Part shown: positions 1,426 through 63,717 of the stretch, piece by piece
How positions within the stretch are numbered: position 1 is the first letter of the stretch
Layout of the letters: every line of letters starts with the position of its first letter
Assembly: GCF_964204645.1 (NCBI RefSeq)
Contig: NC_134032.1
Coordinates: forward strand, 3,310,175-3,374,174
From: Tubulanus polymorphus
Lineage: Eukaryota > Animalia > Nemertea
Direction of reading: 5' to 3'
Length of the DNA: 64,000 nt
Translations under genes and position numbers: made by a program
Notes under the pieces: generated by a model
The model's database searches: none
Seen by the model: only the letters and a program-made list of their open reading frames with translations
Told to the model about the DNA's origin: nothing

Positions 1426-3064
1426 TGTGAATATGGGTTATATTTGTATCTAGACGTGGTACCACTGGTGGTCTAATTTAGAATTTGGATTCCGCGAAGT
1501 CATTAGAAATGCCAGCAATTTTCCGGTATTGATATCGTATCAGGTGTCCACATGAGTTTATCTGTGAAATGTAAAGAGTAATATGTAATATCTACACAGG
1601 TATGAATGAAGAGAAATATACAATTTTCACCGAACAAGTTCTATGAATATATGAAATATATATGAATAGATGCTTTCGGACCGAAGTGTCAGATGATACC
1701 GGAGCATGTTTCAGCTCGAATATGAATTATCAAGTCTATACACGCTCGTAGAGTTTCATTTTGCGCAGTGACAAGTAGAAAAGAACAATTATATAAACAC
1801 TTAAATATCAATAAACACTTAAATATCAAATATCAATCATTTCATCACCCCCTAATTCATCTTTAAACTTTCCAGGAATGTTCTTATTATCATTGCTAAA
1901 TAATTCATGATCTTTTGGATAATTGCTAAATTCAAAATGATGTTTTAATGTTTTAAGTCTTTTTTATGATATTTGTCTTGATTTTTAGTATGTACGCATC
2001 AGTATTTTTTAGGATTAATGGGAACCCAGAATTGAATGTTCCGTCATCTGTCGATAAATCATAAACATAATCTGATGGGTTATATATTTCAAATAAATCT
2101 TCAGTTAATTCTTTTTCTACATGCCTTAAATTAAAACAATTTGGTTAGATTTAATTTATTCAATGCATAATATGTTTAATCCTGATACAGCAACTTTTCC
2201 TTTTTGTGCAAATCTTATTACTGGAGAACTCGTAAATTTCTTCCGTCCATCTGCAGCATAGAATCCAATGAAGAACATTTTCTTAAATTATATTTAGCAT
2301 TTAAAGAGCATATGTCATCAAAATGGAATATTTTATAAAATTCATTTTCAAATGTGATGTATTCACAAATATCAAATATGGAATTGGTTTGAATTTTAGT
2401 TCAGCCATTACTGAGAAACATGACTATTAAATCGGCAATTTCAGCGCGTGCTCACTGTTTTTGTTTATCTTAGCAGGTGCGTGTTTCTGACGTCATCTCT
2501 AACAAACGCACGCGGCTTCCAGTCATTTCACTAGACATTTCATGTGATATTTTATCGTTTTGTGAGTGATTTGAATTACTAAACTCTTTCCATTGTATAG
2601 TGTTGCTACCGTTGTATATAATATGATAATCGTATATCAGTGAGTAGCGCTGTAGGTCAGTGAATACGGTGAACAAATGGTGTTTATTTTATCAATCAGA
2701 CGTAGGCTTCGCGTACTGACCCGCACATGTGCTTGTGTTGATTGTCATGGTTAACATCATAAATAGCGCCACCCGTGGTTTGATTATGAACTATACGTAC
2801 GGAGTGAAGGACTATTCCGCTAACTATTACGGCTAATTCGTGCTCATTTTTTCAATAAGTCACATTTCAGGGGCCAGTTGCTCAAAGGTTGTTTAAGTCT
2901 TAAACAGTCGTTAAATTGCTAAACGAGTCGTTAAAAATTAAACAGTCGTTATTTCCGGTTGTTCAAAGATTTAACGGTCGGTTAAATCACTTAAACGACC
3001 GTTATAGTTAAACGGTCCAAGGTAGGTTGTTTATCTCACCTAACGACTCGTTAAATCAACAAAA

Positions 3065-4506
3065 ATGGCCGACGACATAGGTTGCTTTCTTCCAAATTTT
3101 CAAAATGAAAGACATTTTAGACATAATTTTGAGCAATATGGGAATTCACTGATGATCAATTGCGGCAAAGATTCAGATTTGGTCGGCATGGTCTGGAATT
3201 CATCAAAAACCTAGTCGGAGACGATATGAACAGGGCAACTCACCGTAATCATTCAATTAGTGTTTCAAACCAGATTCTGATAGGACTCCGATTTCTCGCC
3301 TGCGGTTCATTCTTGGAAGTGGTTGGTGATGGTTTTGGTGTGCATAAGAGTACAGTTTCACGTATTGTACAGCGGTTCGTAAATAGTATTTGCGAACACG
3401 CCGATGAATTCATTAAATGGCCGGCAGTCGACGATTTGAATGACCTGAAGAGAGGCTTTTATGATCTGGCCGGATTTCCGAACGTTGTTGGTGCCGTCGA
3501 CTGTACGCACATTGGCATTCAGGCTCCAACAGAAAATGAGCCAGCTTTCGTCAACAGAAAGAGCTTTCATAGCATCAATGTTCAGGCAATATGTGATCAC
3601 AAAGGTAAAATATTGCTCCCAGTTAATGTTTTGTTTCTCCCGTAATTTATATATTTCCGGGTACTTGCGACTAGATGCAGCAAGCAACAGTTTTATCTCA
3701 GTCTTAGCATTACAGTAGAAGGCGCTACTATACAGTCCCTAATCTTCCCCGCTTCAATACTGGTTCGAATCCCAAGATAGGTCTACCATCATGAAGCATA
3801 CCCTACTTATGTTTGTGTCAAACTTAACCCTCAGTCATTATACGTAAAAAATGTCTATTAGTAGGCCTATTGATCACGCTGTTTTTCTTCTTTCCAACAA
3901 GATTTACCAACATCATTGCAAAATGGCCTGGATCGACTCATGATAGTCATATATTCCGATCATCTCCAATCTGCAGGTATGAATGTCTCCGTCTCACTTG
4001 AACTATGTGTTCGCCCTCCCTTGTTTCTGTAATTTATGAACTATAAAAATAACCTTTTCACAGAGATCAATTCTTGCATATTCTAAAGTGTTACGTTATT
4101 GGAAAAACCAGAAGGAAAATAATTTTCCCATGAGTCGAAATCTAAGAAAAAGTCCATTTGACTGAGAATTGCTATCAATCATTGGAATCTTTTCTTATTG
4201 AAGCTTAGAACCATTCACCATCTATAACTCACAACTTGATTTAGGGATGGCTGATTTTTTCTTTCCTAGATATTTGGAAGCACATCCTGATTCCACATTC
4301 TACACGCAGAAATAAGAATGATACCCGGACGTGTCTGTAAGATCGTTTTGTGCTGTGCCATACTACACAACATAGCTATACAGTTAAATGAACCAGAGCC
4401 CGCAGATGTCGTCGACGAAATGGAGTTTGGTGACGTCTTTGCACCACCAAATGTTGATGGCGTGGCATTCAGAGCCAAATTTGCGACCAGGCATTTCAAT
4501 GACTAA
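3065..4506 (+). pseudogene. Harbinger DDE transposase (HARBI1-like), spliced, frameshifted and internally deleted
   Basis: Exons approximately 3065-3604, 3902-3976 and 4270-4506. Motifs [52 protein letters not shown]. The GDxGY...VE segment is missing. Confidence 0.9.
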
Positions 4507-4605
4507 AATCAATCTAATCATGGGAAAAATTTTTAATAAAATTGAAAAAAACATTAAATCATACGTTGTATTGGATAATTATAAACATGAAACGGAATCT
4601 TTAAA

Positions 4606-5771
4606 TTATTCTTCTAATTTCCTAATTTCAAGACGTATTTTTTGTTTTTGGAGTTCTGCCACTTCTTTCTGGACAACCAGCAACTCGCACTGAAGCTGCA
4701 ATCGGTCATCAGTGGTAAACTTCCTCCGTTTTGGCAGTTTTGCGACTACTGACTCCGGCAGCGTAGGTGTCAGCTTCTTTTGCTCCTCTGTAACTTTCGG
4801 CTCTGGTTCCGAATTGCTGTCAATCAGCGATTGTAATTCATAAGCATCTGAAAATGAGAAATCAACCCAATGAGTAAGATGAGGTAATAAAAAGCTGATT
4901 GACATAGAATTGAATTGGACCGAGCCAAATTCCAAATCCGTAACCGCAATTTAGGTACACCCTCCACTAGTTGTTTTAGGTTCTTCTTAAACTTTGCTGT
5001 ACATGACTGTCATGTTGCCTAAGTTAACAGTTATAATGGCCGGAATCTAGCATTGATTTTCATATCAGACATTGAGAAAGTATGTAAAGGTAAGCATTTA
5101 AAAAATCATTTAAAAAAGTCCAGAGGGCTTTAATTAGCTCTTATAGGCCTATGTGCGAACTAAATCACAGTCACTAGAAGCCGGTCTGAAGGTCGTTGGC
5201 TAGAAACCAAAACAAAAGCAGACGATTGAAAATATGTTACCAAATTAGACCCAAAAATCATTAAAAGCCCTTTTAATAGTATTTGAATAAAATGATACAC
5301 GATAGATTAACTCACCAATAGTTGTTAAATCGCTCAAAAAGGTAGTTTCCACACCACCTTCTATTCCAAAAAAGGTTGGATTCCCTCGCTCTTCTTGGAT
5401 GGCAATAATCTCGTTGATAACTGGTGCTGGCTGAGTAGGTGCAGGTCCTCCTCCAGTTTTCCGGCTCTCCCGCTGATAGCCTCCTACTGTGGCCTTGGCA
5501 GTTACACAAAGCTGCCGCCACTTTTCCTTTACAGCAGCAGGTGTCCTCTCACAAATTCCAAGAGAACTCACCGACTTACTTATCTCCACCCACTTATCAT
5601 GTTTTTCCGATTTGTAACACTGTTAGTGAAGCTGCTGGTCAATAAATCGTAGTTTTCTCTCACTAGGCTAGTTAACAGATCGATTTCTTTTACACTGAAG
5701 TTAGTTTTTCTTTTATTTCTAATGTTTTGTTGAGCAGGTTTAACTGACACAGATTCCATGTTTGCAGTCAT
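4606..5771 (-). pseudogene. Harbinger Myb/SANT-like DNA-binding protein (2 exons, about 5771-5316 and 4847-4606), one frameshift near 5600
   Basis: KRKTNFSVKEIDLL...(W)VEISKSVSS...RTPAAVKEKWRQL...RKTGGGPAP and a C-terminal coiled coil; GT-AG intron with consistent phase. Confidence 0.88.
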
Positions 5772-8700
5772 TTTGATTTTGAAAATGAGGCTAAACACTG
5801 TTTAGGACTTAACTACTAGTTTAAAAAAAGATAACGACTCGTTAGTTAACCAAAGGCTTAAACAGTCTTTGAGCAACCGATCTAAACAGTCGTTAAAAAC
5901 GAGTGTTTAAGTAACGACTCGTTAGGGATTTTAACCAGTCGTTAGTCTTAACGACTGGTTAAAATTAGACAACCTTTGAGCAACCGGCCCCAGGTCTTTA
6001 CATGTATGCTTAAGTTTCTTTTGAATAAGAAATCGCAAAAAGTATAATTTTGATGGCATTTGCCCTTTAATACATAATCTGGCACTATCGTTTCTTTGGT
6101 TGAAGTATTACTTTTGACTATTGCATGAATATAGAATTCAACATTATATTTAATTGCAAAATCTTTAGGATAATTCACAAGTATTCTATAAACTGCTGTT
6201 GATTTCATAATATCTATGATTTTAGATATTTTATTTTGAAAAACTTCTTCAAAATATCTTTAATTCTTTCTAATAATTTCAAATTTTGATATCATAAATA
6301 CCAACAATATTTATTGCCTCCAACATAATTATACACACCTGCTGAACCATCTCCCATAAAGAATCCTTTGATAAAATATTATTTTTCTTCGAATGTTTCA
6401 GGTTCTATGTTATAAATATTATCAATTATTTCATCAAATTACCTATGATTCATTCTTGGATAAAATCTTTTATCCAATTATTCATCTCCAATTTTTATAT
6501 CAGTTGGTTTTATTTCATCACCATTTCGTTTAATTAAACTATGATCTTCAGTAACATCTACAAACCCTAATTTAGTTCTAACTCTCTAAATCTTCTTATT
6601 CGTTTTATGTCTAATAATATTCTTTAATTTGTTCAATCCATTTTTTGTCCAAACATCCATTAATTCATTTATTTGTATTAATTCTTTTTCACCATATGAA
6701 ATATAACGTTCATTGTGTTTAGGAATTATTTCTGAAATTCCTCTAATTAACATTTGATTATTATATTTTAATGAAATTGGGGTGTCACCTGTTCAAGAAT
6801 CAAAATATAATATTTCAATATGCTTTTCCCAAAAAGTGGTTGTAAAACATTATAATAAAAATCTACATTATTAATTTTGATATTTCTTAAACAGTTGAAC
6901 CTATGAATATTGGTTTATTAAATTTCATTGACTTTCTTTTTAGTTTTACTGCCGTTAAATAATCTTCAAATCGTTTATTTCCTAAGTGTCTAGGTGTTGG
7001 GAGAGTTCTCGGTCCAACACCACGGTGTTTCGGGCTCACTCCACTGACAGGCGATGGGAATGAGGAAGCGAGCGAGGAGGACTGTATATGTTCTCGGACA
7101 GAAGCAAGGCAAAGGCCGGGCAGAAGCAGAAGCCAGGCGGGTCGACAAGGCAGAAGCAAAGCCAGGCGGGTCACCAGGCAGAAGCAAAATTAGTGAGTCG
7201 GCCAGAGTCACGTTCCCTTGTTGAAGCAGCAAGGCAGAGTCTTGAACTATGTCTTCATTTAATTCATTTCCTTTGTCCATTAAAAATTGCTTTTTGTCAT
7301 ATATTTCTTTTCTCTCAGTTAATTGTTTATTCAACGATTCAAAATCCCCATAAATTACAAATGGCACTATATTTTTAAATTTATAATTCGTAAATTTAAA
7401 TTTATAACCTTTTTCTGCTGTTGGCATTATTAATTTACAAAAATCTTTATTTTCACACAATTCTTTATGTTTTAATAATGCATTCTCCGTCATAAATTTA
7501 GATAAACATTTTCTACATAGATAAATTTTATGATGGTGATCACTTTCTGTTCGAAAGAATAAATCTATTTGTTTTAACCACATATAATGTTCATTTTCGT
7601 CTTTTTTGTAATATCACAAATCTATTACATTTTCATCATCATAATATTCTGTTAAATATAAAGCGTCTAATTTATGATCTTTAATATTTTCACCTATTGT
7701 CTCTGGTAATTGCATTAATTCGAATACATTTATTTTTAAATCATTAACTTTTTCTATTTTAGGAATCATTTTTATAGTTACTGGATATTGACCAATTTTA
7801 TATAATGTTTCAAATTTCCGATAATCTGTTATTCTAAAAACATTTTCCTGAGTTGGATGTAAACAACTAATAATTGACCATAGAAAACATTCGTTATCTT
7901 CAATTTGAACATTTAGTACTGCTTTTGTTGTAAATGGTTATTTAATATAAGATGATGCTTTAATATCCTTTTCTGTTGTAAAGTTTGAATTATTTGAAAA
8001 CATTGTATTACTTTTTGATGTTTTATTCCTTTTTGTATTGTAAATATTTAAATCTAAAAATATAACTTCATTCAATGTTAAACCAGAACCCTCAACATAT
8101 CTTTCCTCAATGTGACGTTTAAATTCATTAAATATTTTTTCTAATTTCTCTTTTGTTTGTGTTTTTGAAATTATTTCTTCAGAATGTGTTTGAATATTAT
8201 ACTCCATTTTTAGTTCTGATTACATAAAACTTACTTTTCCAGAAATAATAATTTTTGGATATTCAGCTTCTGTCATAAGGTCCATTATTTTTTCCATTAT
8301 TTCAATATATTTGCTATAATCTTCTATTGTTGATCCTTAAAAAAATGTAAATATAATAGCTGCTGGTCCAATTTTACTACGTAATGTTTCTAAAATTTCA
8401 ATTGTATCTTTTATTTCTAGTGAATCGATATAATTTCTAACATTTTCCATATACGGTTTATTTGAAAATGATTTCGTTTTTGAAGCTGGTTTTTTACTTG
8501 TTGAGGTTTATCATCAAAATATTCTGTTCCTAAAATATTTCTTCTTAAATTTTGTTGGTGTTTTTGTGATACGAGATGTCTTTTATTATTCCTTTTTACT
8601 ATAAATTCATTACAAACTTCACATTTTATTTCGTCTTTTTTCATATCATTTAATCGTTCTTTTCTTTCATTGGAATTTTCTGGAGTCTCAACATCTATTT

Positions 8701-9259
8701 CATGTTTTTATGATTTGCATTTTTTTTCATGTCCAGATTTTTTAGATTTATCGATGAATTTTTTACAATATGGACAATAATATTGATTTTTATTGAATTA
8801 AATATTTTCTGTTTGGTTTTCACGGTCCACCATTTACAAGGAAAAAAGTAACTTGTGGTGATGAGTGATGTGCCGACCTCTCGACCTCTGATCTGAAAGC
8901 CCACTTCTCCAATCACTAACGCGGCAAGTGCGCGACATTGTTTCCGATTCGATTGAATTGTTTACTAAAAATGTCTTCGTTACTCGATAAAAATCAATAC
9001 GCGATTTAATAAGATTTTAATATTTCGCATACTACCTTGCTTGCCAGGGCTTGTTTGCCTCCCGCCGAAGGTTGCGTTAATTACATAATCGAGTCGAATG
9101 AGATCGTCGAGTCCAGAAATCATGACCTTGACAATAGCATCGATTAAGGTTGTTGAGTGCCATTACGCGGTTAATTTAGTGAAACTGGCAAAATAGCATA
9201 ATTGAGTCCCGCGCACACATCGCAGCTGAACAAAATCAGAGCAACAGTGTGCGTACCTT

Positions 9260-9881: not shown

Positions 9882-11787
9882 ATGGATTCCGGTTCGTCTC
9901 TGAGTAAATTCGAACTACAAATATTTGAAGAAATCTGTCGTAGTTTCGGTTTGGAAAGTTTATCGAGTCATCAGATGTTGTGTTTGATAACTGTTTCACG
10001 CGATAGAAATGACGTTTTTGTATCAACGAAGACAGGGTCCGGCAATATCTTATCAAGCCTTGCCACTCTTCGATTCTAATTGTATCTCCGTTAATCAGTA
10101 TAATGGAAGAACAGTGTAAATATCTGAAAAGTCTTGGGTTTTCTGCATCTTACATCGGACATGCAGAAGAAGAGAACCGGAAAATATTGCTTGGTGAATA
10201 CCAGTTCGTGTTCTGTTGTCCGGAGACACTATTGGCAAAGAGTTGTTGGAGGAACATGGTTTCATCGGCGTTGTATTTAGAACGATTAATTGCTATCGTT
10301 GTAGATGAGGCACACACTGTCCTTGGGTGGTAAGAAAATGTCAATCAGTCTTTTCTCTGTTGTTGTCTCTCTTAAACGAAGTCCGAAAATGTTCTTTTTT
10401 ATTAGGCCTATTTATTTTGTTCTATATTTTGGCTCTCCAATATTTTCAGGGGCGATTCTAGTAAAACCGAAGCCTTCCGTGCATGGTTCAACCACATCGG
10501 TGAGCTACGGAGTCTTTCTCCAGGTAAGCTGAAGTAGTAGACTTTTATTGTCTATTCCTCGTTGCATTCTGTTAGGTTCTTTGACTTCGATTTAAATTTT
10601 TCAATACAGGTGTTCCGGTCATTGCATTTACTGCAACCACTAGTAATAGAACTCGGCGACCGATAAGGAGAAATCTCTGTATCAATTCGAACGCTATTGA
10701 AATTGTTGATTCTCCGGACCGGGAAAACGTTAAACTTTCAGTTTTAAAGGTAATTGACTTGATGTTTAAAATTGTTGCAGAGAATGAAAAATTTCAACAA
10801 AATAAGTTCTTACTGAAGTCTCTCAATCGATCACTTTGAAAATTTGGTGGTATTTGTAATATTTAATATGTTATGATAACTTTCTTTTACAGAGATCCTG
10901 CAAGGACCCGAACTCTGTTGCGTTTGGTTGGCTGGTGGATTGGATTCATGACCTTCAACATAATTGTCCTCGTGTGATTATATTCTGCCAGTCAATCATG
11001 GAAACTGCGAAGGTCTATGATGATTTGGAGGTCAAAGTTGGACACCGTCACATAAATATGTATCATAGCTGTACACCAGATCCAGTAAAGGAAATTATTG
11101 GAAAAGACATGTCCGACTCTGATGAATCCATCAGAGTACTGATCTGCACATCCGCCGCAGGAATGGGGGTGAATTTCCGTGGAGTTCACAACGTTGTAAA
11201 TTTTGGCCCACCATACGATGTCGATATGTTCCTCCAAATGTTAGGTCGAGCCGGTCGCGATGGTAAATAGTCAGATCATATACTCATTTATAACGGACGG
11301 CAACTGAATTAAAAAAGTGGACCATTTAATGACGAAAAACATAAAAAACTATACCGAATGTAGACGTGAACACTCAATGAAATCTTATGACACCGAAGTC
11401 ATACAAAAAATCAAACATTTTTGCTGTGATATATGTTGTGAATCGTGTGAATGTGAAAGTGTTGATTGCAAGTCAACTCATCCGGCTAAAGTCTCAGAGT
11501 CTCCTTCCGAACGTGAAAAGCAGCGTACTTGCACAAAAAGTAACATCGATGAACTAAAGAATCGTCTTCAGGCGTATGATTGTGATTCATCAACAAATGA
11601 TATTACAGTGGACGTGCAAAACTTTTCAAACTCTGTCATCGACTCAATTATAAAAAAAGTTCCCATATATATGCGATGAAGATGATATTTTGACAATTGT
11701 GGAGTTTGGACATTTGATCAAGCCATTTATTGCTTACAATGCATTTCAGACATTTTCGACGAGTTATACGTGAATTTTTATGTATAG
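9882..11787 (+). pseudogene. RecQ-family helicase of the AcademH element (spliced, disrupted)
   Basis: DVFVSTKTGSG (Walker A, damaged), VSPLISIMEEQ, VVDEAH, AFRAWF...GELRS, AFTAT, MYHS, TSAAGMGVN, QMLGRAGRDG followed by a stop, and a CRR...CCDIC Zn-binding RQC-like region. GT-AG introns. Confidence 0.92.
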
Positions 11788-12460: not shown

Positions 12461-15400
12461 TTAACCCTCTCCTATCGCAAAGATAGTTTGTTTAATTAAA
12501 GTCATTTCCCTTTTAGCTCTACATTTCTGTTCCCTTAACCATATTTTCAACTCTGAAATTTTGATCCTTTCCATTGGACTCTTAAAGTTATCAAATACAC
12601 CCATATCACGTTCGGCATTCACAATGAATACATCAGCTGCAACTAGTTCATTCACCATCAACGAAACATCCTTAAATTTAGATACTGAACTTTTTGAGCC
12701 ACCTTTTATTGGTGAACCGCTGAAACTTTGCACATTGTTAACAATTTCGTCAATTATTTGGCAGGATTTTGCTGATTTAAATGTTACATTTGCTCCTTGA
12801 TCACACAATTTCTGCTTTATTTTCTTAACTTTTATTTTAACCAGGTTATCGTTAGGGATGTTGTTTCCTAATCCTCCTCGGAGATTAACTCCTATGTTCC
12901 ATTCATATTCGAAAGCTTGTTTTTCTGTTTATAGGGCAAGTTCATATGCATTCATACCCCAAAGCCATAATCGGTATTTGGTACATGACCGCATGGAAAT
13001 GCATTAAGCATTTCAAATTTCGCATTTCGAAAAGAGCGATCACCATCACTATATTTGAAACTGTCATTCGTGTCATGTAAGAGTAGACCTAGCTGTATAA
13101 ACGCGCTACTTAATGCTGGCCAACTGTCCACAGTTTTTTCCAATTTGGGAGATTCATCGGGTAAATCCCAGTCATGCATTTCTACCAAATGTTTCCTCAG
13201 GTTCTTCATTATTTTGTAAGGTTTATTACAAACCTTACATCTAAACACATCCCCTGAAATATGGAAGAGATTAATAATCAATTTAGTCAAACATTTAAAA
13301 AAATTAAGTACCAGGGGTAATTTAATTTACCAATTCGCATTTCTGATAGAATGATGACTAAATCGCTTGGTTCTGCAACATTTTGTGAAACATAATCTAC
13401 GTAACTATCAAAAATATCATCCAGTAGAATAAAACATGGGAGAAATGTTAGTAATAATCATACATGCTCATACCATTTTGAATCTAGAAACTCGATTTAT
13501 AACATATATTTCAAGTCACGTGCAGAGTCTGTGCTAGAAACTGTATTCGATTCATCCAGATATTGTCATGTCCATTTATTATACTACAGATAGGGAAAAT
13601 AATCTAACAAAATTCATAAACAGAAGATTTGGTAGATGCTGAATTAGCCTTTTTTGTAACAAAACTAGAGCAGTATAGTAAATGTCCTTGACGGAACTAG
13701 TAATTACTTGAAAGATTGATAATCCGTCAGCGATCAGTCGCCGCCTCATAGACCTAAGATTTTAAAATGTCACCCGATAAATATTCATTACTCTATGAAG
13801 ACCTTCAGGATGATGGATGATACTCGACAACTTTTGGCAGTCAGTAACAACATTTTTCATTGAAAACTGTGCTGAATAAGCTCGTTCATTTGTCAGGACA
13901 TCTCCACCAAATACAATTTTCCCGAGACGTGACGGTGTACCTGCATTCAGCAGTGGTACATACTCACTCTGAATGTGCTGAAGGATACGTATGATTCCTG
14001 CTGTTTCATTTTCCGATTCTTCCATTAAATCCACTAATAAATACTCTGATTTCGATTTGCTCTGATGTATGTATGGATGAGGGATACATTCAGGCAGCAA
14101 ACTAGCATAAGGTATCAAACACTTTACGTAACTGACGAGCACTTTCGCAACGTGGAAAGACGTACAATCAATAAGTTTATTACAATCTTCATCGGTGGGT
14201 AAGAACTGAATTTCTTGAAAGTCAGCGATGTCAGACTTTGGTTTTGTGTCGTCAAGCGGTAAAAACCTTTTCTTGACACAAACATTTAAAAACCAATGAA
14301 TACTTTTCCTTTGAAGCTCCGAGTTATATAGGTAGGCGATATAGTTAAGTCCAAGTTATCTCCGATAACATCAAATGGAGTTTTTTTCTATCGTACAATC
14401 CAAGCTCTTCAAATACTTACACGTAGCAGGAATCGATGCAACAGCAATTACTGGTGAACTACATGTAGTAGAATTACTTATAGGCATTCCATTTTCATTA
14501 GAACATTGACAGATTTGTTTTGTAAAGTTGTTTGCTCATTATGACATGTAAAATACATCGGTCGATGCTTACTTTGGACGGAAGAACATTGGTTTGATTT
14601 TTTTCATAGACACATGACTATAGACGGAACGACAATGGTTGAACGAAGAGGCAACTTTGACCACAGCTTTTGATTCACATTCTTTCTCATGTAATGTGAC
14701 CTGATGACTTGGAAACAGTGTTTCAGTCCTCATAGGATCAGAACATATTTTGCTATAATGCACTTCCTTCGTTACCGGATATTTCTCATAGTGTTTGACT
14801 ATTTGATTTCTAGACTCCAGCACTTGCTTATCGATAGCATATCTTTTTTCTGTGTATAATGCATCGCCTGAATTTCTTTTTTGTTGAGAATAGATCTATT
14901 CGATACACTGAGCCCCATGTGATTACACATTGTTATAACCTAAAAATAAATTTCAATCATGTACTCTACATCTGAATAAAAATCAAATGTTCTCGGTCAA
15001 CTGCAAGTCCTTTCTGGTCCTAATAAGACTTCTGTCAGTTATGTACCACCAAAACTGATTGAGCTATGCCACCTGATGTGCTCTCAAGCCAAGTTGAAAT
15101 AGACATTAGTGTGGCAGGGGATTGTGCCGTGGCAGAGTGTAGCGATGCCTTCAGGTTCGAATCCTTGCCAAGGGAGGATGAAATATGAATGTAAGTGGAA
15201 ATATAATTGAACATAATCAGGCAAATTTTAGAAAACATTGAAACACTATTCTACCGGTTAGCGTCTTACCTTATCTGACGTACCACCATCATCAAGAGCT
15301 AAACCAACAATATGCTGCATGACTGACAACATGCGATTACGACTGAACAGCATGATCGAGCCAGCCATTGCCATTTGCTGCTCCTTCTGGTAAGAAGTTG

Positions 15401-16585
15401 TGGTCCCATAGACTTCGGTTCTTAAAATGTCAACAAACATCTTCGTTGCCATTCATCTTGCCATTCATCTATGATAATATCTGGCTTGAAGTTCAGTAGA
15501 CTAGTCACATCAGATGACCGTAAAACTGACGGTGGATCCATCGCGCACAGTGAAATTATCTCCTGGTTCAAATGATGTAACATTAATTCGAATATCTCCG
15601 TTTTGTACATATTTACAATGGAAGCAACCACCACATGCCTTGGCTTTCCAGCAACTAATTTCATCAAAAATCCTCGGCTTTTTTTCGGAAGCCACGGAAC
15701 GTCTAGTCTGCGATGGGTATGCAACAGTAACAGTGACGTAGATTCACAAAGAAAAGAAAAGAGAATAAGACCAGTTGTAGAAACTTACTTGAACTTACTA
15801 GAACTACAATGAATTCCATGCTAGACTAAGCTCAGAACCTTGTAGCAGGCCTAACATATTAACAAGAAAATACAAACTAACGCTAGTTTCTTCTTGGCTC
15901 TGGATGGAGAGGCACGCTGTAAAAGTAAATTTATATTTAGAATAGACAGCAGTAAACTTTATGAAGGCGATGGATCATTATCGACGATTAATAATACTAC
16001 AGCGGCATAATGATAGTCTACTTAAGTGAATTGTGTATTTTGTACCAAAGATTTAAATGCTACATACCGGTAATACAAACGTAATAGTTCGTTTGCACTT
16101 TTTAGACGAACACAGCGCTGGTGATAGTATCTTCGAGTTAAATTTTGACTGGGGTGTCGAAGTCTTCTGCACTTTTTCACGAGGTACAGGTGTCTGCCCA
16201 CTGGGGATGCGACAACGTTTCACCGGTTTGGTATTCTCAGAGTCCGACTCAGTTGGCAGTTCAAATTCATTAGTCTCGGCCACATCTAAAGATTCAGTCT
16301 TGACTGACAGAGACAATTATGTCAATAAACGTCATCCTGATACGCATGTAATAGGCTCACAATATCTTGCTGCACATCTTTCAATTTGTTCGCAGCATTT
16401 GAAAATTTTCTTTATTTCGATAAACATTCACGACACAAGATGTCACTTACTCGTTTTCGGTTATTGGTGTCCAAAAACGACATGTACAGCGATAATAACG
16501 CCGGTTGGAAAGTGACTGAATCTATTCTCACACGCATACGAGAGTCATCAACAGACTTTTTGCACAGATCACAAATCTTTGACAT
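12461..16585 (-). pseudogene. AcademH-type (DUF6589-like) transposase, multi-exon, disrupted
   Basis: N-terminal CDLC...CREC Zn motif, DVIGDNLD (about 14350-14373), FGGDVLTNERA, HPEGLH, C2H2 finger CKVCNKPY...HLVEMH, DGDRSFR..K, VNLRGGLGNNIPNDNLV, QGAN. Several stops and frameshifts. Confidence 0.75.
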
Positions 16586-19500
16586 TGTAACAGGTACACG
16601 TACGCATCAGTAATTAAGAACATTCAGCATCTGAACGGGATGAACTTACGTGTATCGAGCAAAGCACACGAGAACGAACAAACAAACTATGCTATGGAAA
16701 TCATATAAATGGGAAAAACCCGGGCGGAAGTATGGGCCAAATGAAACATGATTTCTGATTGGCTGACAATGACATCACGGTAGAGCTGCGCATGTATCTG
16801 CGCACACGGTCGTTTATGGCAGGGTTTCGTGCCGTTGCAATCTCGATGCCATCAGGTTCGAATCCCTGACGGGGGAGGATGGGTCCCGCCATCTTCGTTA
16901 AGAAACTGGACGATATCACAGTGTCCGAATATGTGAACTGGGTTATATTTCACTGCAGGAGATACGTAACGGCGAGGGGACTGAAACAGTAATACTATGA
17001 ATAACCTGTCTCAGTGACACACGCATTCTTTCTTTTTGAATTTATTTTTCTTACCACTTTCATACGGGTAGCCTCTGACATGGTAGGTTTTGATATTTAA
17101 AAAATCTGTTTCATGCCTTGAGGATAAAGTTAAGATATATTTCTGGACCATGCTTTCTTTACGTCAATACAGTGCATCCATTGACTGGTAGCCCCGGGAA
17201 TATCACTTTTAGAAAAATATAATTACAAGTGGAACAATTGGTTAGCTAAATGACGTGAAATATTTGAGTAATGCAATTCAATGTAATTGGTTCAAAAAGA
17301 TAATCGAACTCCCAGCAGGAAGATTGATAGCAATATTATACAAATTCAACACGGTGGGACAGATGAATTATTCCACGAAGTCCGATTGCAGGCTCGGAAA
17401 GACACGAGGAAAAATGTTATTCTGCATGCCTGTTAACCCGTATGCTTTAATTGTACGGGAAATTCAGTTTTCTTTTTCATGTACTTCGTACATGGATCAT
17501 TATATGGGAATTTGCAAAAAATAGAAGTGGTTTTTTCCATGAATGAGAATGATTGACCTGGAGAATAAAGGCGTTCAAATTTTCAAATTCATACCTTTGA
17601 AAGGTTCAACCTTCGTTATTTTGTAAGGTTTTCCAAAATATTCTATGTCATGGCAACCCTATATTCAGCGGAGAAGTGGCTCATTTCAGATTTAATGAAA
17701 CGACAATATTTCCATCAGCAACAGATGCAGGGGTGCACTTCTAGCATGTACACCACCTCCTCACGACACAATCTCTTGCTTTTTGGAGTCCAAGGTTTTG
17801 GACTCCAACCGTGTCAGAGATGCATCTCAGGCGCCGGTGTTGTCATATCGCGGAATAACTGAATCGCGGAGTTTTTTAAAAACACGGATTTTCTTCACTC
17901 TCACTATAAATAGTAACCATGTTTTCCCGCGGGGATGCCCTGTGTCGCTCAAGGCACCTGACCAATCGATGCACTGAGTTAGCTTCGAATCACACTATTA
18001 AGCACGCAATCTTATCTGACATTATTGTTCTATGATACCGTTCATCTGCAGTCAGAATGTAGACTTTTTGCGATCTCAAGTAGATTTGAGCACAGTCGCT
18101 CTAGCTTGGGTCGTAGTCAGATGGCTGCAAACATGAAATGTGCTACTACCAAACATGTACCGCGATTCCATGAATATTATTTCAATAGAAACCGCCGTCT
18201 AGTACCGATAATACGTATTTAGACTCAAGGAATCAACGCGGAGAATCAACTAAGTAACAGCTTTCTCTTCAAGAATAACGGAATCAACTAAGTAACAAAT
18301 GATGTAACATTAATTCGAATATCTCCGTTTTGTACATATTTACAATGGAAGCAACCACCACATGCCTTGGCTTTCCAGCAACTAATTTCATCAAAAATCC
18401 TCGGCTTTTTTTCGGAAGCCACGGAACGTCTAGTCTGCGATGGGTATGCAACAGTAACAGTGACGTAGATTCACAAAGAAAAGAAAAGAGAATAAGACCA
18501 GTTGTAGAAACTTACTTGAACTTACTAGAACTACAATGAATTCCATGCTAGACTAAGCTCAGAACCTTGTAGCAGGCCTAACATATTAACAAGAAAATAC
18601 AAACTAACGCTAGTTTCTTCTTGGCTCTGGATGGAGAGGCACGCTGTAAAAGTAAATTTATATTTAGAATAGACAGCAGTAAACTTTATGAAGGCGATGG
18701 ATCATTATCGACGATTAATAATACTACAGCGGCATAATGATAGTCTACTTAAGTGAATTGTGTATTTTGTACCAAAGATTTAAATGCTACATACCGGTAA
18801 TACAAACGTAATAGTTCGTTTGCACTTTTTAGACGAACACAGCGCTGGTGATAGTATCTTCGAGTTAAATTTTGACTGGGGTGTCGAAGTCTTCTGCACT
18901 TTTTCACGAGGTACAGGTGTCTGCCCACTGGGGATGCGACAACGTTTCACCGGTTTGGTATTCTCAGAGTCCGACTCAGTTGGCAGTTCAAATTCATTAG
19001 TCTCGGCCACATCTAAAGATTCAGTCTTGACTGACAGAGACAATTATGTCAATAAACGTCATCCTGATACGCATGTAATAGGCTCACAATATCTTGCTGC
19101 ACATCTTTCAATTTGTTCGCAGCATTTGAAAATTTTCTTTATTTCGATAAACATTCACGACACAAGATGTCACTTACTCGTTTTCGGTTATTGGTGTCCA
19201 AAAACGACATGTACAGCGATAATAACGCCGGTTGGAAAGTGACTGAATCTATTCTCACACGCATACGAGAGTCATCAACAGACTTTTTGCACAGATCACA
19301 AATCTTTGACATTGTAACAGGTACACGTACGCATCAGTAATTAAGAACATTCAGCATCTGAACGGGATGAACTTACGTGTATCGAGCAAAGCACACGAGA
19401 ACGAACAAACAAACTATGCTATGGAAATCATATAAATGGGAAAAACCCGGGCGGAAGTATGGGCCAAATGAAACATGATTTCTGATTGGCTGACAATGAC

Positions 19501-21024
19501 ATCACGGTAGAGCTGCGCATGTATCTGCGCACACGGTCGTTTATGGCAGGGTTTCGTGCCGTGGCAATCTCGATGCCATCAGGTTCGAATCCCTGACGGG
19601 GGAGGATGGGTCCCGCCATCTTCGTTAAGAAACTGGACGATATCACAGTGTCCGAATATGTGAACTGGGTTATATTTCACTGCAGGAGATACGTAACGGC
19701 GAGGGGACTGAAACAGTAATACTATGAATAACCTGTCTCAGTGACACACGCATTCTTTCTTTTTGAATTTATTTTTCTTACCACTTTCATACGGGTAGCC
19801 TCTGACATGGTAGGTTTTGATATTTAAAAAATCTGTTTCATGCCTTGAGGATAAAGTTAAGATATATTTCTGGACCATGCTTTCTTTACGTCAATACAGT
19901 GCATCCATTGACTGGTAGCCCCGGGAATATCACTTTTAGAAAAATATAATTACAAGTGGAACAATTGGTTAGCTAAATGACGTGAAATATTTGAGTAATG
20001 CAATTCAATGTAATTGGTTCAAAAAGATAATCGAACTCCCAGCAGGAAGATTGATAGCAATATTATACAAATTCAACACGGTGGGACAGATGAATTATTC
20101 CACGAAGTCCGATTGCAGGCTCGGAAAGACACGAGGAAAAATGTTATTCTGCATGCCTGTTAACCCGTATGCTTTAATTGTACGGGAAATTCAGTTTTCT
20201 TTTTCATGTACTTCGTACATGGATCATTATATGGGAATTTGCAAAAAATAGAAGTGGTTTTTTCCATGAATGAGAATGATTGACCTGGAGAATAAAGGCG
20301 TTCAAATTTTCAAATTCATACCTTTGAAAGGTTCAACCTTCGTTATTTTGTAAGGTTTTCCAAAATATTCTATGTCATGGCAACCCTATATTCAGCGGAG
20401 AAGTGGCTCATTTCAGATTTAATGAAACGACAATATTTCCATCAGCAACAGATGCAGGGGTGCACTTCTAGCATGTACACCACCTCCTCACGACACAATC
20501 TCTTGCTTTTTGGAGTCCAAGGTTTTGGACTCCAACCGTGTCAGAGATGCATCTCAGGCGCCGGTGTTGTCATATCGCGGAATAACTGAATCGCGGAGTT
20601 TTTTAAAAACACGGATTTTCTTCACTCTCACTATAAATAGTAACCATGTTTTCCCGCGGGGATGCCCTGTGTCGCTCAAGGCACCTGACCAATCGATGCA
20701 CTGAGTTAGCTTCGAATCACACTATTAAGCACGCAATCTTATCTGACATTATTGTTCTATGATACCGTTCATCTGCAGTCAGAATGTAGACTTTTTGCGA
20801 TCTCAAGTAGATTTGAGCACAGTCGCTCTAGCTTGGGTCGTAGTCAGATGGCTGCAAACATGAAATGTGCTACTACCAAACATGTACCGCGATTCCATGA
20901 ATATTATTTCAATAGAAACCGCCGTCTAGTACCGATAATACGTATTTAGACTCAAGGAATCAACGCGGAGAATCAACTAAGTAACAGCTTTCTCTTCAAG
21001 AATAACGGAATCAACTAAGTAACA
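15569..21024. repeat. Near-perfect direct tandem duplication, unit 2,727 bp (15569-18297 / 18296-21024)
   Basis: Identical ORF set offset by 2,727. Only one difference was noticed by eye (gccgttgca vs gccgtggca). 2-bp CA microhomology at the junction. Confidence 0.97.
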
Positions 21025-21714: not shown

Positions 21715-22174
21715 CTCAGGCGCATCTTATATTCAAAAGAATTTCGCGGGGAACTCCCAGACCAAAAACTTTGCTTTGTCCTCCCCTAACCGAAATCCCG
21801 AATCCTCCGCTGACAATATTTTAGCAAATCTCCTCTGAGGTAACGGGTAGCTATAGCTCGTATCTAAACCCGTCCCGTGGACGGGTTGTGCTAGTATTCA
21901 TATACTCTAAATGGATTATGTCTATGACTAATTTTTCTATTCAATTTGTCAAACAAAACTTACGCAATATTATGTTCTTTCTATTAGTAAAATGTGATTC
22001 AAATAGAAGCAGTGCTATTGATTACTTCATAATATACTTCTGAAAGTGTAATGCCAGCGCAGTATTCAAATGTAACTCTACGTAGTGCCCGACAGCAGCG
22101 TTAATCTATTGAGAATCTGTTACCATAGCATTCAGCGATTATTTCTTAATGCCGTAAAATCTCTCTCGCCAGTT

Positions 22175-23209
22175 ATGTTACTGCCAAGGACGACAATAAG
22201 AAACGGTTCAAATGGCACGATGGAAAATTCTACAGTTGAACAACACTGTTCATTGAATAAGGTCATCTTTAACATCGTAATCGTGTATGTTTACTGTTTA
22301 CCTGCAATTTGGAGCACTGGATTTTTCCTCAATATTTACACATACGTCATTCTATATCGTTTTAAATCAGATGTAACCACATATTACATTCTGCGACTAC
22401 TTGCAATTGCGGATAATATGTTTATATTAGGCACAGCTGTTGCGAGGTCTGGGAGATATTTCGATGGCCTGCTTAAGTTTGGTGTACATCTTTATTACTT
22501 GGATCGCTTAGAATTTGTTGGTGCAATTCTGATACGTCATACGCGCGAGTTACAAGAAATTTTCAAAATGATTAGAAACCTACTTACGATGCTGATCAGT
22601 TTGGAACGATTAACTGTGGTGTTATTTCCTTTAAGATCTAAAATCATTTGTACTAAACGCACTTGTAATATTTGTTTATTGTGTATAATTATCATTGCTT
22701 TAGCCACTCAAGGCTGGATGTATTTCACTTTACACAATAAACGAATGCAATCTCTTTGTCCATTTAGACGTAACCTGTGGGCTATAGCCGTCGTCGATCG
22801 ACGAGTTTCAAGAATAAAGGGTCTGACACACATATTAGGCATATTGGTACCTCTTTCTGGTATAGTTCTTGCAAATATAATTTTAGTAAATTCATTGCGT
22901 CGAGCTTCCAAAAGACGCATCGAAATCAGCACTCAAAAAATGAATGACAACCAAGCTGTTGTACTAGCGATTGCAGTTATAACGACTTTTGCTGTATTCG
23001 AAATGCCAACGGCCGTGCACAAGTTGCTCTATCAATTTTTTGATTTCAAAGGTTTCATCCCGGATCTTAATTTCTTCTTTGTAGCGTCAGTGTTTGATCA
23101 GATCGATTCCTCTGTCAATTTTGTGGTTTATTGTTTGTGTAGTAAAAGATTCCGATCGCTTGCGTTTAACACTTGCCCACATCAAATGTGCAGACATCGC
23201 CCCAAATAG
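22175..23209 (+). CDS. Intronless rhodopsin-class GPCR (FMRFamide-receptor/Srw-like, putative chemoreceptor)
   Basis: Seven hydrophobic segments, LAIAD (TM2), ISLERL..V.FPL (TM3), FEMP (TM6), SSVNFVVY..CSKRFR (TM7/H8). First ATG at 22175; N-glycosylation sites at the N-terminus. Confidence 0.9.
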   Translation: MLLPRTTIRNGSNGTMENSTVEQHCSLNKVIFNIVIVYVYCLPAIWSTGFFLNIYTYVILYRFKSDVTTYYILRLLAIADNMFILGTAVARSGRYFDGLLKFGVHLYYLDRLEFVGAILIRHTRELQEIFKMIRNLLTMLISLERLTVVLFPLRSKIICTKRTCNICLLCIIIIALATQGWMYFTLHNKRMQSLCPFRRNLWAIAVVDRRVSRIKGLTHILGILVPLSGIVLANIILVNSLRRASKRRIEISTQKMNDNQAVVLAIAVITTFAVFEMPTAVHKLLYQFFDFKGFIPDLNFFFVASVFDQIDSSVNFVVYCLCSKRFRSLAFNTCPHQMCRHRPK

Positions 23210-25425: not shown

Positions 25426-25455
25426 TAATACACTATCATTTGATCCGCATGAATC

Positions 25456-41552: not shown

Positions 41553-41959
41553 TATAATATTCGGCGCAGTTCGTTGTGAATATATCAGTTATGTGTTGAA
41601 ATTCGATGAAATGCATCTATTGCCGGCGATATTAATTGTGTAAAAGTGCAATATGCATAAATAAAATCTCACTCGAGAAAAGTGTTAAAACTAATGGGTG
41701 TATATGTAACATGTTCTAATGTAAGTAGGAATGATATCTGAGGAATATTTAACGTGAAAACCAACTCCAATATTGTCAATTTAAAATCTATACTATAAAG
41801 GGTAAACTAGTTTTTCATAACCAGCTGCGCAAAACCTATTCATTGTTTGATTATGAAACTTGGCATGCACACAGAGGAATAGATTTTCGTGGTCAAGTTA
41901 ACAATTTCATTTGGATCCATGGTCTTATTCCACCCGAATTCGAATCCCTAAAATCCCAG

Positions 41960-59245: not shown

Positions 59246-59277
59246 AAATTTTAATAAAAAATTTAGTATTAAAATGG
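59246..59277 (+). promoter_or_regulatory. Putative element-specific promoter/leader motif AAATTTTAATAAAAA...TATTAAAATGG (repeated at 63320-63350)
   Basis: Near-identical motif of about 31 bp ending in the ATG of two consecutive genes. Confidence 0.5.
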
Positions 59278-62200
59278 AAGCAAATAAGTACTATTGTCCA
59301 ACATGTAATATCAATATAGATAAATCCCAAAAAGCAAGACACAATAAAACTGAAACACATTTAGAGAATAAATTGAAACTAGAATATTAAGATGATATAT
59401 TAGAAACTAAATTAGAAGAATTAAAGAATGAAAAAGAAACATACAAATGTGATACATGTAATCAATCATTCAGTGATAAAAGATATTATAAAGAACATTT
59501 AAAATCTATAAGTCATATTAGAAATAAGAATAATGATATTTTAGGTGAAGATAATTTTGATAATGATAACGATAAGAAACAGAAGACAATTAAAAGCATA
59601 AAAAATTAATTAAACAATAAAAGACCATACATGGAAGATGTAAGAAATTATATTAATTCATTAGATAATAAAAAAGATATAGAGATAACCGAAGCATTTA
59701 AAAGTGATATTGGTCCAGCAGCTATCGAGTTTAAATTTCACAAAGGAAAAACATTAGAAGAAAATAAAAAACATTTAGAAAATATGAAAGAAATAATAAA
59801 AATAATTACAGATGTTGAATATCCTAAAATAAGTATATCAGTTAAAGTAAAGTTTATAAAATCTGAAGATAAACCAATATATAATATAAATTCTCATTCA
59901 CAACATATCATATCTAAACAACATATAGATGATAAATTAGATAAATGTTATAATGAAGTAAAAACTAAAATAGAAGAGAAATATTTTGAAGGATCAGGGG
60001 TTAATATTTGATGAAATAATATTTATGCCTTTACATGTTTATAACACAAAATATAATAAGTTAACTAAATCAAAACCAATCGATGAAAATAATTTATCAT
60101 ATTATAAAGAACCAGATATTGAAGCATCGAGTTATATTAAACTACCATTTAAAACTAATGCTATAATAAATGTACAAAATGAAGATGATAAATGTTTTCT
60201 ATGGGCTATAATAAGTTGTTTACACCCAGTTGAAGATTATAAACAACATAGTTTTAGATTAACTCATTATAAACCATTTGAAAATAATTATAAGATAGAT
60301 AAGTATCCTGTTAGAATTAAAAACGTCCCAAAAATAGAAAGATATAATAATAATTTAAGAATAAATGTATTTGATTTAATCAAATTACCAAATACAAAAG
60401 GTAACAATATAAAAAATTATACATTAGAACCTTTATATCTATCAAAAGATTATGATTCAAACGATGTTATAGATATACTATATTATGAGAATCATTATAT
60501 GTGGATTAAACAAATAGATTTATTTTTTAGAACAGAAAGTGATCACCATAATAAAATATATCTTTGTAGAAAATGTTTACATAAATTCAGTAATGAAAGT
60601 ACATTATTAAATCATAAACAATTATGTGAAAATCATGATTATTGTAAATTAGTTTTACCAAATGAAAAGGATAAAATATTAGAATTCAAAAAATATGATT
60701 ACAAAAATAAAGTACCATTTGTAATATATGGAGATTTTGAATCATTAAATAAAGAATTAACTGATCAAGATAGAAAAGAAATATGTTATAAAAGAAAGAA
60801 ATTAAATTCTAATGAAAATGGTTTTTCAGATGAACCACCAAAAACAAATACTATCAAAAAGATTCATCAATCAGCTGCTGCTTTCGGGTTATATATTAAA
60901 TCTGATTATCCAGAACTAATTGAAAGTGAATATTATGATTATAGAAATGAAAATGTTATCAATCATTTTTGTGACTTATTAATTGAATATGAAATAAGAT
61001 TTAGTAAATTATTGAATACAAATATAGAAATTATAATGACAGAAAAAGATAAAGAAGAATTTGAGTTTTCAGATAAATGTTATTATTGTGAAAAGATATT
61101 TAATTATAAAGATAAAAAAGTAAGAGACCATGATCATTTGAACGGAAAGTTTAGAGGCGCTGCACATGAAAATTGTAACTTACAAGCTAAGAAAATTAAC
61201 TTTGTACCAGTTATATTTCATAATCTATCAGGATATGATGCTCATTTATTCATCAAACAGTTATGCTATAAAATAGAAGAAATCAATAATGAAATAGAAA
61301 TATTAAATTCAAATAGATCAAAAGATAAAATACCAACTTATAAATTTAGAATGTTAGCTTAAACATCTGAGAATTATATATCATTCCAATTTGGGTGTTT
61401 AAGATTTATAGATTCATATAGATTTTTAAATAGTTCATTAGATAACTTATCAAAATCATTAGTTGATGATGAATTAAAAATATTAAAGCAACACTACCCA
61501 AATATTGATGATTTTAAATGAGATATAAAGGAGCAATTCCATATTCTTTCTATAAAAATCATAATGATTTTAACATAACTGAATTATTGAAAGAACAATT
61601 CTATGATGAATTAAAAAATGAATATGTTAAAGATGAAGTCTATAATAGAACATTGAATATTTGGAATCATTTCAAAATAGAAAATCATGGGCAATTGGTA
61701 GATATATATTTAAAATCAGATGTATTATTATTAACCGATATATTCGAAAGGTTTAGAGATGTAAATCTAAAATATTTCAATATTGATCCTTGTCATTGTT
61801 ATTCATCACCAGGATTAATATGGGATTGTGGATTAAAATTTACAAATATAAAAATGGATTTGTTAACAAATATAGATCAATTATTATTATTTGAAAAATC
61901 TATAAGAGGAGGTGTTTCAGGTGTATTAGGTGATAGATATTTCAATGTAAATGATAACCCCGGATATAAGTTATTATATATAGATGCAAATAATTTGTAT
62001 GGTTGGGCAATGATGGAACCACAACCTTATGGAGTATTTGAATTAACTGAAGTTTTACAGAATGAAAATAATGATAAATTTGATTGGAAGAAAAGAATCC
62101 TAGATATTGCAGATGATTCAGATACTGGTTACTTCTTTGTTGTAGATTTAGAATATCCTGAACATATTAAATTTAAATCTAGAAATCTAGCTTACTGTCC

Positions 62201-63317
62201 AGAACATAAAACTGTAACTCATGAAGAATTATCAAATTACCAAAAAAGAATTAAACCCGAAAATCATATTCATACAGAAAAGTTAATGGTAACTCAAGAA
62301 GATAAATATAATTATGTAGTACATTATAGAATGTTAAAATTCTATTTGAATCAAGGAATGATTCTAAAAAAAGTACATAGATATATTTCATTTAGTCAAT
62401 CTAAGCGGTTAGAAAAATATATAGATTTTAACACCAAACAGATAACTGAAGCTAAAACTGATTTCGAGAAAGATTTCTTCAAGTTAATGAATAATGCATT
62501 CTATGGTAAGACTTGTGAAAATATTAGAAATAGAAATGATATTGAGTTAGTAAGTAATGGCAAAAGGATAAGGTATTTACAAACATATCCTAAATTTATA
62601 GGTAACAGAATATTTGATGAAAATTTAGCCGCAGTTAAAATGAGAAGAACATCAATGAAATTTAATAAACCAATCTATGTTGGCACTTCAGTTTTAGAAT
62701 TATCAAAATTACTAATGTATGAATTCTATTATAATGTATTACAACCACTTTTTGGAGAAAAACATATAGAAATATTATATTTTGATACAGATTCTTACAT
62801 ATTAAAGATAAAAACTGATAACATAACAGATGATTTAAAAACATTAAAACATCATTTTGATTTTAGTAATTATCCTAAAGATCATGACTTGTTTAGCAAT
62901 GATAATAAAAAAGTTCCAGGGAAGTTTAAGGATGAATTAGGTGGTGAAGAAATGATAGAGTTTATCTGTATTAGATCTAAAATGTATTCATATAAAACTA
63001 AAGAACATGAAGCTAAAAAGTTAAAAGGAATAACCAAAAATGTAGTAGAAAAGAATATTCATTTCAAAGATTACATCAATTATATATTCAATGAAGAAGT
63101 TAGAAAACATAAGATGAGATGTTTAAGATCTGAGTACCACGAAATGTTTATTGAAGAAATTGAAAAGGTTAGTTTGAATCCATTTGATGATAAAAGATAT
63201 ATTTTAGATGATGGAATTCATACAGTTGCTTATGGTTGCAATTTAGATGAATACTTAAAATTTAAAAGAGAAGAAACAAAAGAGAACGAGATAATGAAAA
63301 GAATTCTAACGTGTTAA
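59274..63317 (+). pseudogene. Protein-primed DNA polymerase B (Polinton type), intein-free allele, about 5 lesions
   Basis: Zn fingers, NEDDKCFLWA...HYMWIK, ExoI VIYGDFES, endonuclease VII-like CYYC...RDHDHLNGKFRGAAHENCN, ExoII FHNLSGYD, ExoIII YLKSD, Pol A YIDANNLYG, Pol B KLMNNAFYGK, Pol C YFDTDS, KLKGI. Stops near 59390 and 61362; frameshifts near 59600, 60005 and 61518. Confidence 0.95.
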
Positions 63318-63346
63318 TCAAATTTTAATAAAAATATGTTATTAAA

Positions 63347-63700: not shown

Positions 63701-63717
63701 GAAAATATGTAAAATAA

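Follow-up and report, generated by a model that had tools for sequence, protein, structure and literature searches.

A 64,000-nt stretch of the genome of the nemertean Tubulanus polymorphus (NC_134032.1, positions 3,310,175 to 3,374,174; hereafter the window) carries on its minus strand the broken DNA polymerase gene of a Polinton, interrupted at catalytic motif C by an insert (2004..6798) that is almost certainly an intein. We put at roughly 0.8 the probability of the following explanation, which is drawn from sequence comparison: the insert is a broken copy of a motif-C intein of Polinton protein-primed family B DNA polymerases (pPolBs), combining a Hint splicing domain with a LAGLIDADG endonuclease; the family likely goes back to one giant-virus family B polymerase (PolB) intein; and its unbroken members are predicted to splice and are likely to home into empty copies of the same gene.

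Anatomy of the insert

The insert begins at position 6798, directly after the YFD of the polymerase, and ends at 2004, where Lys-Asn is followed by TDAY. Its two coding pieces (Table 1) sum to 1029 nt, or 343 codons, and make up a Hint domain with a double-LAGLIDADG endonuclease. A first-pass annotation, made from the letters of the window alone, had predicted a bifunctional intein of about 340 aa split by 2305-6066, and every motif that it quoted (including Ser1, TxxH, two LAGLIDADG motifs, YDL, the final Asn and Thr at +1) was recovered in place. It had also put the insert at the YxD/TDS site of motif C (slash, insertion point); the motif is correct, but the extein here reads YFD/TDA, not TDS.

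When Hint and LAGLIDADG profiles were searched, as the same annotation had suggested, the N-terminal piece scored 27.3 bits against TIGR01445 (intein_Nterm), above the curated cut-off of 24.5, while the Pfam profiles LAGLIDADG_3 (E 0.003) and Intein_splicing (E 0.04) stayed below their cut-offs on the broken piece alone. The N-terminal piece aligns at 59% identity (E 2.6e-60) to a protein that joins polymerase and intein without a break, and the C-terminal piece scores 234 against the same protein, with 12 shuffles giving -64 +/- 11 and a best of -49. With X placed at the breaks, the window intein is 59.6% identical (196/329) to its closest unbroken relative, P0002. Because of the TIGR01445 score, the identity to P0002 and the C-terminal score against shuffles, we judge from these alignments that the match is not a chance resemblance. 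A sequence search of solved structures retrieved weak intein matches only (E 0.017). A Hedgehog Hint domain and a bacterial intein-like domain were considered and ruled out, given the presence of an endonuclease and the exact insertion in a conserved catalytic motif.

The window copy is dead and cannot work. It holds seven stops and three frameshifts, not counting the transposon break, and lacks 13 residues; the block-D Lys of the endonuclease is replaced by Thr, in this copy only among those in our motif table. The first-pass annotation had likewise called the copy dead on account of its stops and frameshifts, but the host gene is far more damaged than it had stated. The copy would have been lost after integration, through point decay, the insertion of a Kolobok-type element with a Harbinger element nested in it, and deletions.

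Table 1. Features of the window bearing on the intein and its host polymerase (positions within the window)
Feature	Position	Strand	Description
Intein part 1	6067..6798	-	Ser1, block B TEDH, first LAGLIDADG motif, block D region; 6 stops and 1 frameshift
Intein part 2	2004..2300	-	second LAGLIDADG motif, block F YVYDL, terminal Lys-Asn; 1 stop, 2 frameshifts, short deletions
N-extein flank	6799..6984	-	ends HIEILYFD; 81% DNA identity to intein-free copy
C-extein	1833..2003	-	opens with +1 Thr (TDAYILKIK); cut off at 1833; 83% DNA identity to intein-free copy
N-terminal part of same broken Polinton polymerase	7292..8780	-	zinc-finger region onward; 7292-8457 72% identical to second copy
GC-rich unrelated stretch	6990..7255		about 2 kb of polymerase missing here (exonuclease, motifs A and B); limits approximate
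Kolobok-type non-autonomous element	2305..6066		3762 nt; TTAA duplication, AG ends, 24-nt inverted ends; inside endonuclease domain
PIF/Harbinger element	2871..5990		3120 nt; CAG duplication, 27-nt inverted ends; DDE_Tnp_4 (+), Myb/SANT (-); nested in outer element
Second Polinton-type polymerase, intein-free	59274..63317	+	YFD/TDS, empty site between 62786/62787; several broken frames; Endonuclease_7 domain

A family of unbroken relatives

Relatives were collected into a set of 557 proteins by three homologue searches, one profile search and three cluster look-ups. The profile search took in extein columns, and 124 of its 149 new matches were intein-free polymerases, which were used for the extein tree; the set is thus biased to near relatives. 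The window's polymerase is matched by 205 of the 557 proteins, 52 of them with an intein, 27 with a whole one, and 12 with a whole one in frames of at least 1400 aa. These 12 and P0433 make 13 near-whole frames of polymerase plus intein, which belong to six clusters at 90%. P0002, the best homologue, runs without a break over 1693 aa and has PF03175, Intein_splicing and LAGLIDADG_3 domains and a 354-aa intein at YGD/TDS. P0433 is a 1603-aa PF03175 polymerase with its intein at YLD/TDS; its exteins have no BLAST match to the other Polinton polymerases, and its intein is 39-46% identical to theirs. A VSR-like motif in P0433 found no profile match. PF14890 scored above its cut-off in P0422.

All 20 complete Polinton inteins tabulated keep Ser1, both LAGLIDADG Asp residues, the block-F Asp, the terminal Asn and Thr at +1, and all 20 read KEK or KEN in the block-D Lys region; the block-B TxxH is altered in two. 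The structure predicted for the P0002 intein is confident (score predicted for the local distance difference test, pLDDT, 93; predicted template modelling score, pTM, 0.92), and its best solved matches in a fold search were TliVMA, PI-PkoII, PI-PfuI and PI-SceI, with the PolBs of a phycodnavirus, Pandoravirus, Marseillevirus and Megavirus as the best named viral matches. Unbroken members of the family very probably splice, to judge by these motifs.

The first-pass annotation had pictured a giant-virus-type intein that moved into a Polinton polymerase and was carried into a metazoan germline. The animal and the Polinton stand; the carriage into a germline was an understatement, as the intein belongs to an old and widespread family with unbroken members and signs of recent movement. 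The relatives appear to reside in animals as well, judging by large contigs of up to 1 Mb, multi-copy clusters and a record from a clam-symbiont bin. The latter, P0107 (MBV2113503.1), is a Polinton polymerase with an intein on a 2.5-kb contig filed under the metagenome-assembled genome (MAG) of a clam symbiont (Ca. Thiodiazotropha ex Ctena), and is likely host DNA in a bacterial bin. A plasmid search returned no match.

Placement among giant-virus inteins

A careful tree of the inteins was built from 53 chosen rows (147 in a fast tree) and rooted on a chosen outgroup. The 14 Polinton rows form one clade (100/100) inside the starred group of giant-virus-type PolB motif-C (PolB-c) inteins (97/96), so that the tree with viral PolB-c inteins that the first-pass annotation had proposed indeed nests the Polinton inteins among those of giant viruses. 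Two non-Polinton proteins, P0045 and P0060, had grouped with the Polinton inteins in the fast tree; both lie on a long branch, and the careful tree omits them. The sister of the Polinton clade (93/74) is a 13-row clade of uncultured giant viruses, several of whose members come from giant-virus metagenome-assembled genome (GVMAG) contigs, and which ends in FN[TS]GFPLIVKN, a tail common to the Polinton inteins. The signature that the first-pass annotation named for the Mimivirus PolB intein (SVTGDTP, VTEDH, YVYDL and terminal KN, with Lys in the penultimate place) is indeed present in Mimivirus. The kinship with giant-virus inteins holds, but on this tree Mimivirus is not the nearest relative: its intein falls in another subclade and is 39% identical to the closest unbroken Polinton intein. 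A single entry into Polintons from the giant-virus PolB-c intein family seems likely on this tree.

Five proteins in the set (P0003, P0097, P0219, P0231 and P0259) are topoisomerases II and PolBs of giant-virus type with at least two related inteins each at different sites, and the same intein family has therefore moved between non-allelic sites. Two archaeal MAG contigs, one of them labelled Promethearchaeota (L161:7706-11704 and L162:6266-10255), encode a PolB with an intein of the same family at YGD/TDS, 37-38% identical.

Signs of movement among Polinton polymerases

In a polymerase tree made by a fast method from 141 rows (16 with the intein, 125 empty), the intein is confined to one group of 33 rows (16 with, 17 without), and at least six gains or losses are needed across the starred branches of the tree. 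Within one polymerase class, intein and extein identities run close together (47 vs 43-46, 70 vs 71-75, 76 vs 79-80 and 56 vs 47-51%), and conservation is about equal in the endonuclease and the Hint domain, which argues for long residence and a maintained nuclease.

The clearest traces of movement lie among close siblings. The 90% cluster of P0422 has 136 members, and among the 15 listed, seven carry the intein, six are empty and two are too short. Their exteins are 94-99.7% alike, and variants far from the site are common to both allele types, whereas fixed differences between intein-bearing and empty alleles lie between -7 and +44; of the 22 variable columns that are shared, 18 are at -7 or beyond it. 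In the pair P0524 and P0535, one allele with the intein and one without, all 290 of 290 positions up to -10 are the same, followed by 6/10 and 6/10 around the site and then by 36/40, 57/60 and 40/40. At six of the eight nearest differences, the intein-bearing allele has the residue of a neighbouring intein-bearing lineage. In another cluster, that of P0408 (with intein) and P0411 (empty), the exteins are 99.6% identical. Such a site-centred patch is the footprint that would be expected from homing with co-conversion, or from escape by empty alleles; either would need an active nuclease. Recent homing is, on this pattern, probable; that it takes place among integrated copies in the host nucleus is a more tentative proposal, which we hold at a little under even odds.

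Two empty members of the P0422 family, P0529 and P0531, read YTDCDS in motif C, with Cys for the usual Thr, while other empty siblings read YFDTDA. The YTDCDS alleles are candidate target-site escape variants.

Host polymerase and its intein-free sibling

The polymerase around the insert has lost about 700 residues and both of its ends, and residues ~430-1125 of P0002 are unmatched in it. At the DNA level, the second, intein-free polymerase matches the first on either side of the insert (81 and 83%), exactly as far as each junction. PF03175 was not found in the window's own polymerase pieces. Both copies match P0002 by tblastn, and the PF03175 protein-primed PolB domain that defines the class is present in the relatives P0002, P0422 and P0433, in agreement with the Polinton protein-primed polymerase named as host in the first-pass annotation.

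Two further frames follow the intein-free polymerase at 63332-64000, the last of which resembles small viral proteins. Its region (63718-63999) gives a weak capsid-like lead, with DUF5901 on 10% of one cluster at low recognition, and is possibly a minor capsid protein. Just upstream of the same polymerase is an inverted repeat whose arms measure about 25 nt (59024-59099), across which 301 and 122 raw reads change strand and where depth reaches up to ~2000; it might be the centre or the end of a palindromic Polinton-derived element.

Two nested transposons

The two nested transposons predicted within the insert are both present, with TTAA on either side of the outer element, CAG on either side of the inner, and inverted ends on both. 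The defining set of PIF/Harbinger elements is a DDE_Tnp_4 transposase, a Myb/SANT partner, a 3-nt duplication and inverted ends. The outer element measures about 640 nt without its passenger and is considered non-autonomous because it lacks a transposase. The end sequence of piggyBac served to reject a piggyBac identity for the outer element, the ends of which begin with AG. Kolobok elements are marked by a TTAA target duplication and purine-purine ends, according to the part of the source consulted (PMC6004289).

Genomic setting and raw reads

The window also holds five frames of rhodopsin-family G-protein-coupled receptors (GPCRs), arrays of which are metazoan, and two reverse transcriptase (RT) frames of long interspersed nuclear element (LINE) type. 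On these grounds the DNA belongs to an animal genome, as the first-pass annotation had held. The GPCR frames (22076-23209, 25453-26406, 36340-37338, 40794-41588 and 56955-58139) look intronless and form a chemoreceptor-like array, with 7tm_1 above its cut-off and weak Srw and Srsx matches; the last has an internal stop. Elsewhere, 16057-17977 and 18784-20704 show the same set of ORF lengths 2727 nt apart, which suggests a tandem duplication. A Helicase_C frame (10860-11270) and a DUF6589 frame (13762-14355) on opposite strands possibly belong to a helicase-bearing DNA transposon, which we assume to be possibly Academ-like.

Four runs of one study contain this stretch, and that study may be its source; raw reads came from a second study under the same species label, 12% of one run being read. 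Sixty-one reads connect 2299 with 6066, so there are inteins free of the transposons, and 46 connect 2867 with 5991, so there are outer elements free of Harbinger. Empty alleles must exist too, since 56 reads jump from 1954 to 6799, and a contig with 21 letters on its short side does so from 2003. Three of the seven intein stops are among the 40 rows listed (667 further), and at these 91-99% of the reads carry another letter; these breaks are therefore private to the window copy. Read depth was ~236 over the first intein part, 624 over the second polymerase, 46 over the GPCR region and 9 over the left flank. By a loose estimate, the species has roughly 5 (if the GPCR region is single-copy) to 25 (if the left flank is) intein-bearing copies. 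Run X1 has a very high summed contig depth, which was not taken to mean amplification, as thousands of short overlapping contigs had been summed.

Proposed mechanism

In class 1 inteins, Ser1 undergoes an N-O shift, Thr+1 attacks, and the terminal Asn cyclises. By this chemistry, and given the motifs, splicing would ligate the polymerase and restore the catalytic aspartates of motif C. The freed LAGLIDADG intein would then cut the empty motif-C site of another Polinton, and repair on the intein-bearing copy would copy the intein together with some of its flank. Multi-copy Polinton families would keep supplying empty sites and thus keep the endonuclease under selection. Motif C is near-identical in RNA-primed viral PolB and protein-primed PolB, which may have permitted a jump between otherwise unalignable enzymes; this likeness would explain a move from viral PolB to pPolB and then between two Polinton polymerase classes.

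A motif-C intein must splice for its element to replicate, and the unbroken multi-copy families would therefore imply protein splicing in animal cells. A bolder version, for which we see slightly less than an even chance, is a living homing cycle in animals, in which an integrated Polinton intein cuts and converts empty sister copies in the host nucleus, the empty copies evolve altered targets, and the intein has jumped between unrelated polymerase classes. If true, this would mean that protein splicing and endonuclease homing occur naturally in the germlines of animals, and would amount to a molecular record of animal polintoviruses once sharing a cell with a giant virus. Such past contact in one cell, which the proposed origin implies, bears on whether animal Polintons are viruses or virophage-like. 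In families with both allele types at 98-99% identity, homing, co-conversion and target escape could be measured directly in the genomes of animals.

Alternative explanations

The alternative closest to our proposal accepts a real intein and differs from it solely in where homing occurs: only between free, replicating polintovirus genomes in co-infection, the chromosomal copies being passive passengers that neither splice nor cut there. This is a serious possibility, if one that we would not bet on. As far as the consulted part of PMC5784728 goes, the viral inteins known of this type all belong to replicating giant viruses; the window copy has decayed along with its polymerase; and protein data cannot place the site of conversion. 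Against it are seven near-identical unbroken frames of 1537-1539 aa with the intein and their empty siblings, which lie on separate contigs between 95 kb and 1 Mb long, and therefore cutter and target are likely to be found in the same nuclei. A single ancient insertion with vertical descent, repeated precise losses and no recent homing, the endonuclease being a relic or an accessory domain like the HNH and VSR inserts, would fit intein and polymerase trees that have the same main groups and identities that track each other. It is nevertheless improbable, given the at least six gains or losses that the polymerase tree needs, the clustering of differences at the insertion site, an intein common to an unalignable polymerase class (P0433) and the retained catalytic residues of the endonuclease. 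A 340-residue block between catalytic aspartates is incompatible with a working polymerase, so without splicing it could not have persisted in one. Contaminant or misassembled giant-virus or protist DNA is very improbable indeed. It is true that the best matches in viral and metagenome contigs are giant-virus PolBs, that no listed contig spans the whole stretch and that the contig joining left flank and C-extein has only 30 letters on the Polinton side; but the exteins match a Polinton polymerase elsewhere in the window at 81-83% identity, two host-type transposons with target duplications sit in the intein, one contig bridges Harbinger, outer element and intein (two differences) and another bridges extein and intein, and the second-study reads cover the intein at ~235-fold.

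We would like to note several points that weigh against the intein explanation as proposed, or against parts of it. The penultimate residue is His in 16 of the 20 complete Polinton inteins, with Lys or Ser in four (Ser in P0002) and Lys in the window copy, not the usual His; this His is usual, not universal, in class 1 inteins. The relatives are protein sequences only, and none of 166 fetched loci held an ORF matching the window's polymerase (queries P0002, P0100 and alignment A2; 24 of 64 metagenome parts). The window yielded no identifiable gene for an integrase, ATPase, protease or major capsid protein; copy 1 is cut at both ends there and copy 2 runs off the edge. In approximately unbiased (AU) tests on a quick tree of 19 rows, rejection was not reached for Mimivirus as sister (p-AU 0.085), nor was nesting of P0433 significantly different from a place outside the other Polinton inteins (p-AU 0.196). 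The direction of transfer depends on the chosen outgroup. Beyond +10, differences do not match the neighbouring lineage, and the site-centred patch could come from escape mutations in empty alleles or from ordinary recombination.

Comparison with known systems

No description of inteins in Polintons or in animal chromosomes was found in the literature searched, which excluded the supplements of Green 2018, Jeong 2023 and Starrett 2021, subscription journals and Repbase. The word "intein" occurs 0 times in the portions consulted of the coral polintovirus paper (PMC11131425), Starrett 2021 (PMC8502044) and PMC7544198; those of the cryptophyte Polinton-like virus (PLV) paper (PMC12220804) and of PMC5718144 mention inteins generically. 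According to the surveys, in the sections available, the inteins of eukaryotes occur in fungi, protists, algal plastids and large DNA viruses; Green 2018 (PMC5784728) there lists no animal lineage and notes invertebrate iridovirus inteins, and the Anaeramoeba paper (PMC10710043) there mentions neither animals nor Polintons. We regard the present case as an element of a known kind that occurs here in a class of host, and in a kingdom, for which no description was found; it has unbroken relatives, and the trace of apparent homing is clear, if indirect.

Among the reported counterparts are the HNH and VSR inserts in Polinton pPolBs, which likewise put a nuclease domain inside the polymerase (PMC10748475, PMC11161782, excerpts). 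They have no reported splicing domain in the consulted text of Jeong 2023 (PMC10748475), where "intein", "Hint" and "LAGLIDADG" occur 0 times, whereas the intein polymerases described here also carry an Endonuclease_7 domain elsewhere. An excerpt of Krupovic 2024 (PMC11161782) suggests intein invasions as the origin of these homing-endonuclease inserts; such invasions, so far speculative, gain direct support from the presence of a full family of inteins in Polinton polymerases.

The PolB-c inteins of Nucleocytoviricota (the Mimivirus PolB intein, P0482, and the FN[TS]GFPLIVKN clade) have the same YxD/TDS site, a length of 330-355 aa, Ser1, Asn and Thr+1, and the same block motifs; they are 37-43% identical to Polinton inteins and of the same fold class. 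The Polinton inteins differ in their host, a protein-primed polymerase without BLAST similarity to giant-virus PolB, in residing in an element that is integrated and multi-copy in an animal genome, and in forming a long-stemmed clade of their own. The archaeal and yeast LAGLIDADG inteins TliVMA, PI-PkoII, PI-PfuI and PI-SceI also join a Hint domain to two LAGLIDADG domains (structure E 9e-19 to 3e-10), but are only 12-18% identical and lie in single-copy cellular genes; the Polinton intein is shorter, with no large DNA-recognition insert evident. Finally, the inteins of fungi, amoebae, choanoflagellates, green algae and Anaeramoeba are likewise nuclear and probably virus-delivered (PMC5784728, PMC10710043, in part), but in contrast to these and to the invertebrate iridovirus inteins, the carrier here is an endogenous mobile element, neither a host gene nor a free iridovirus.

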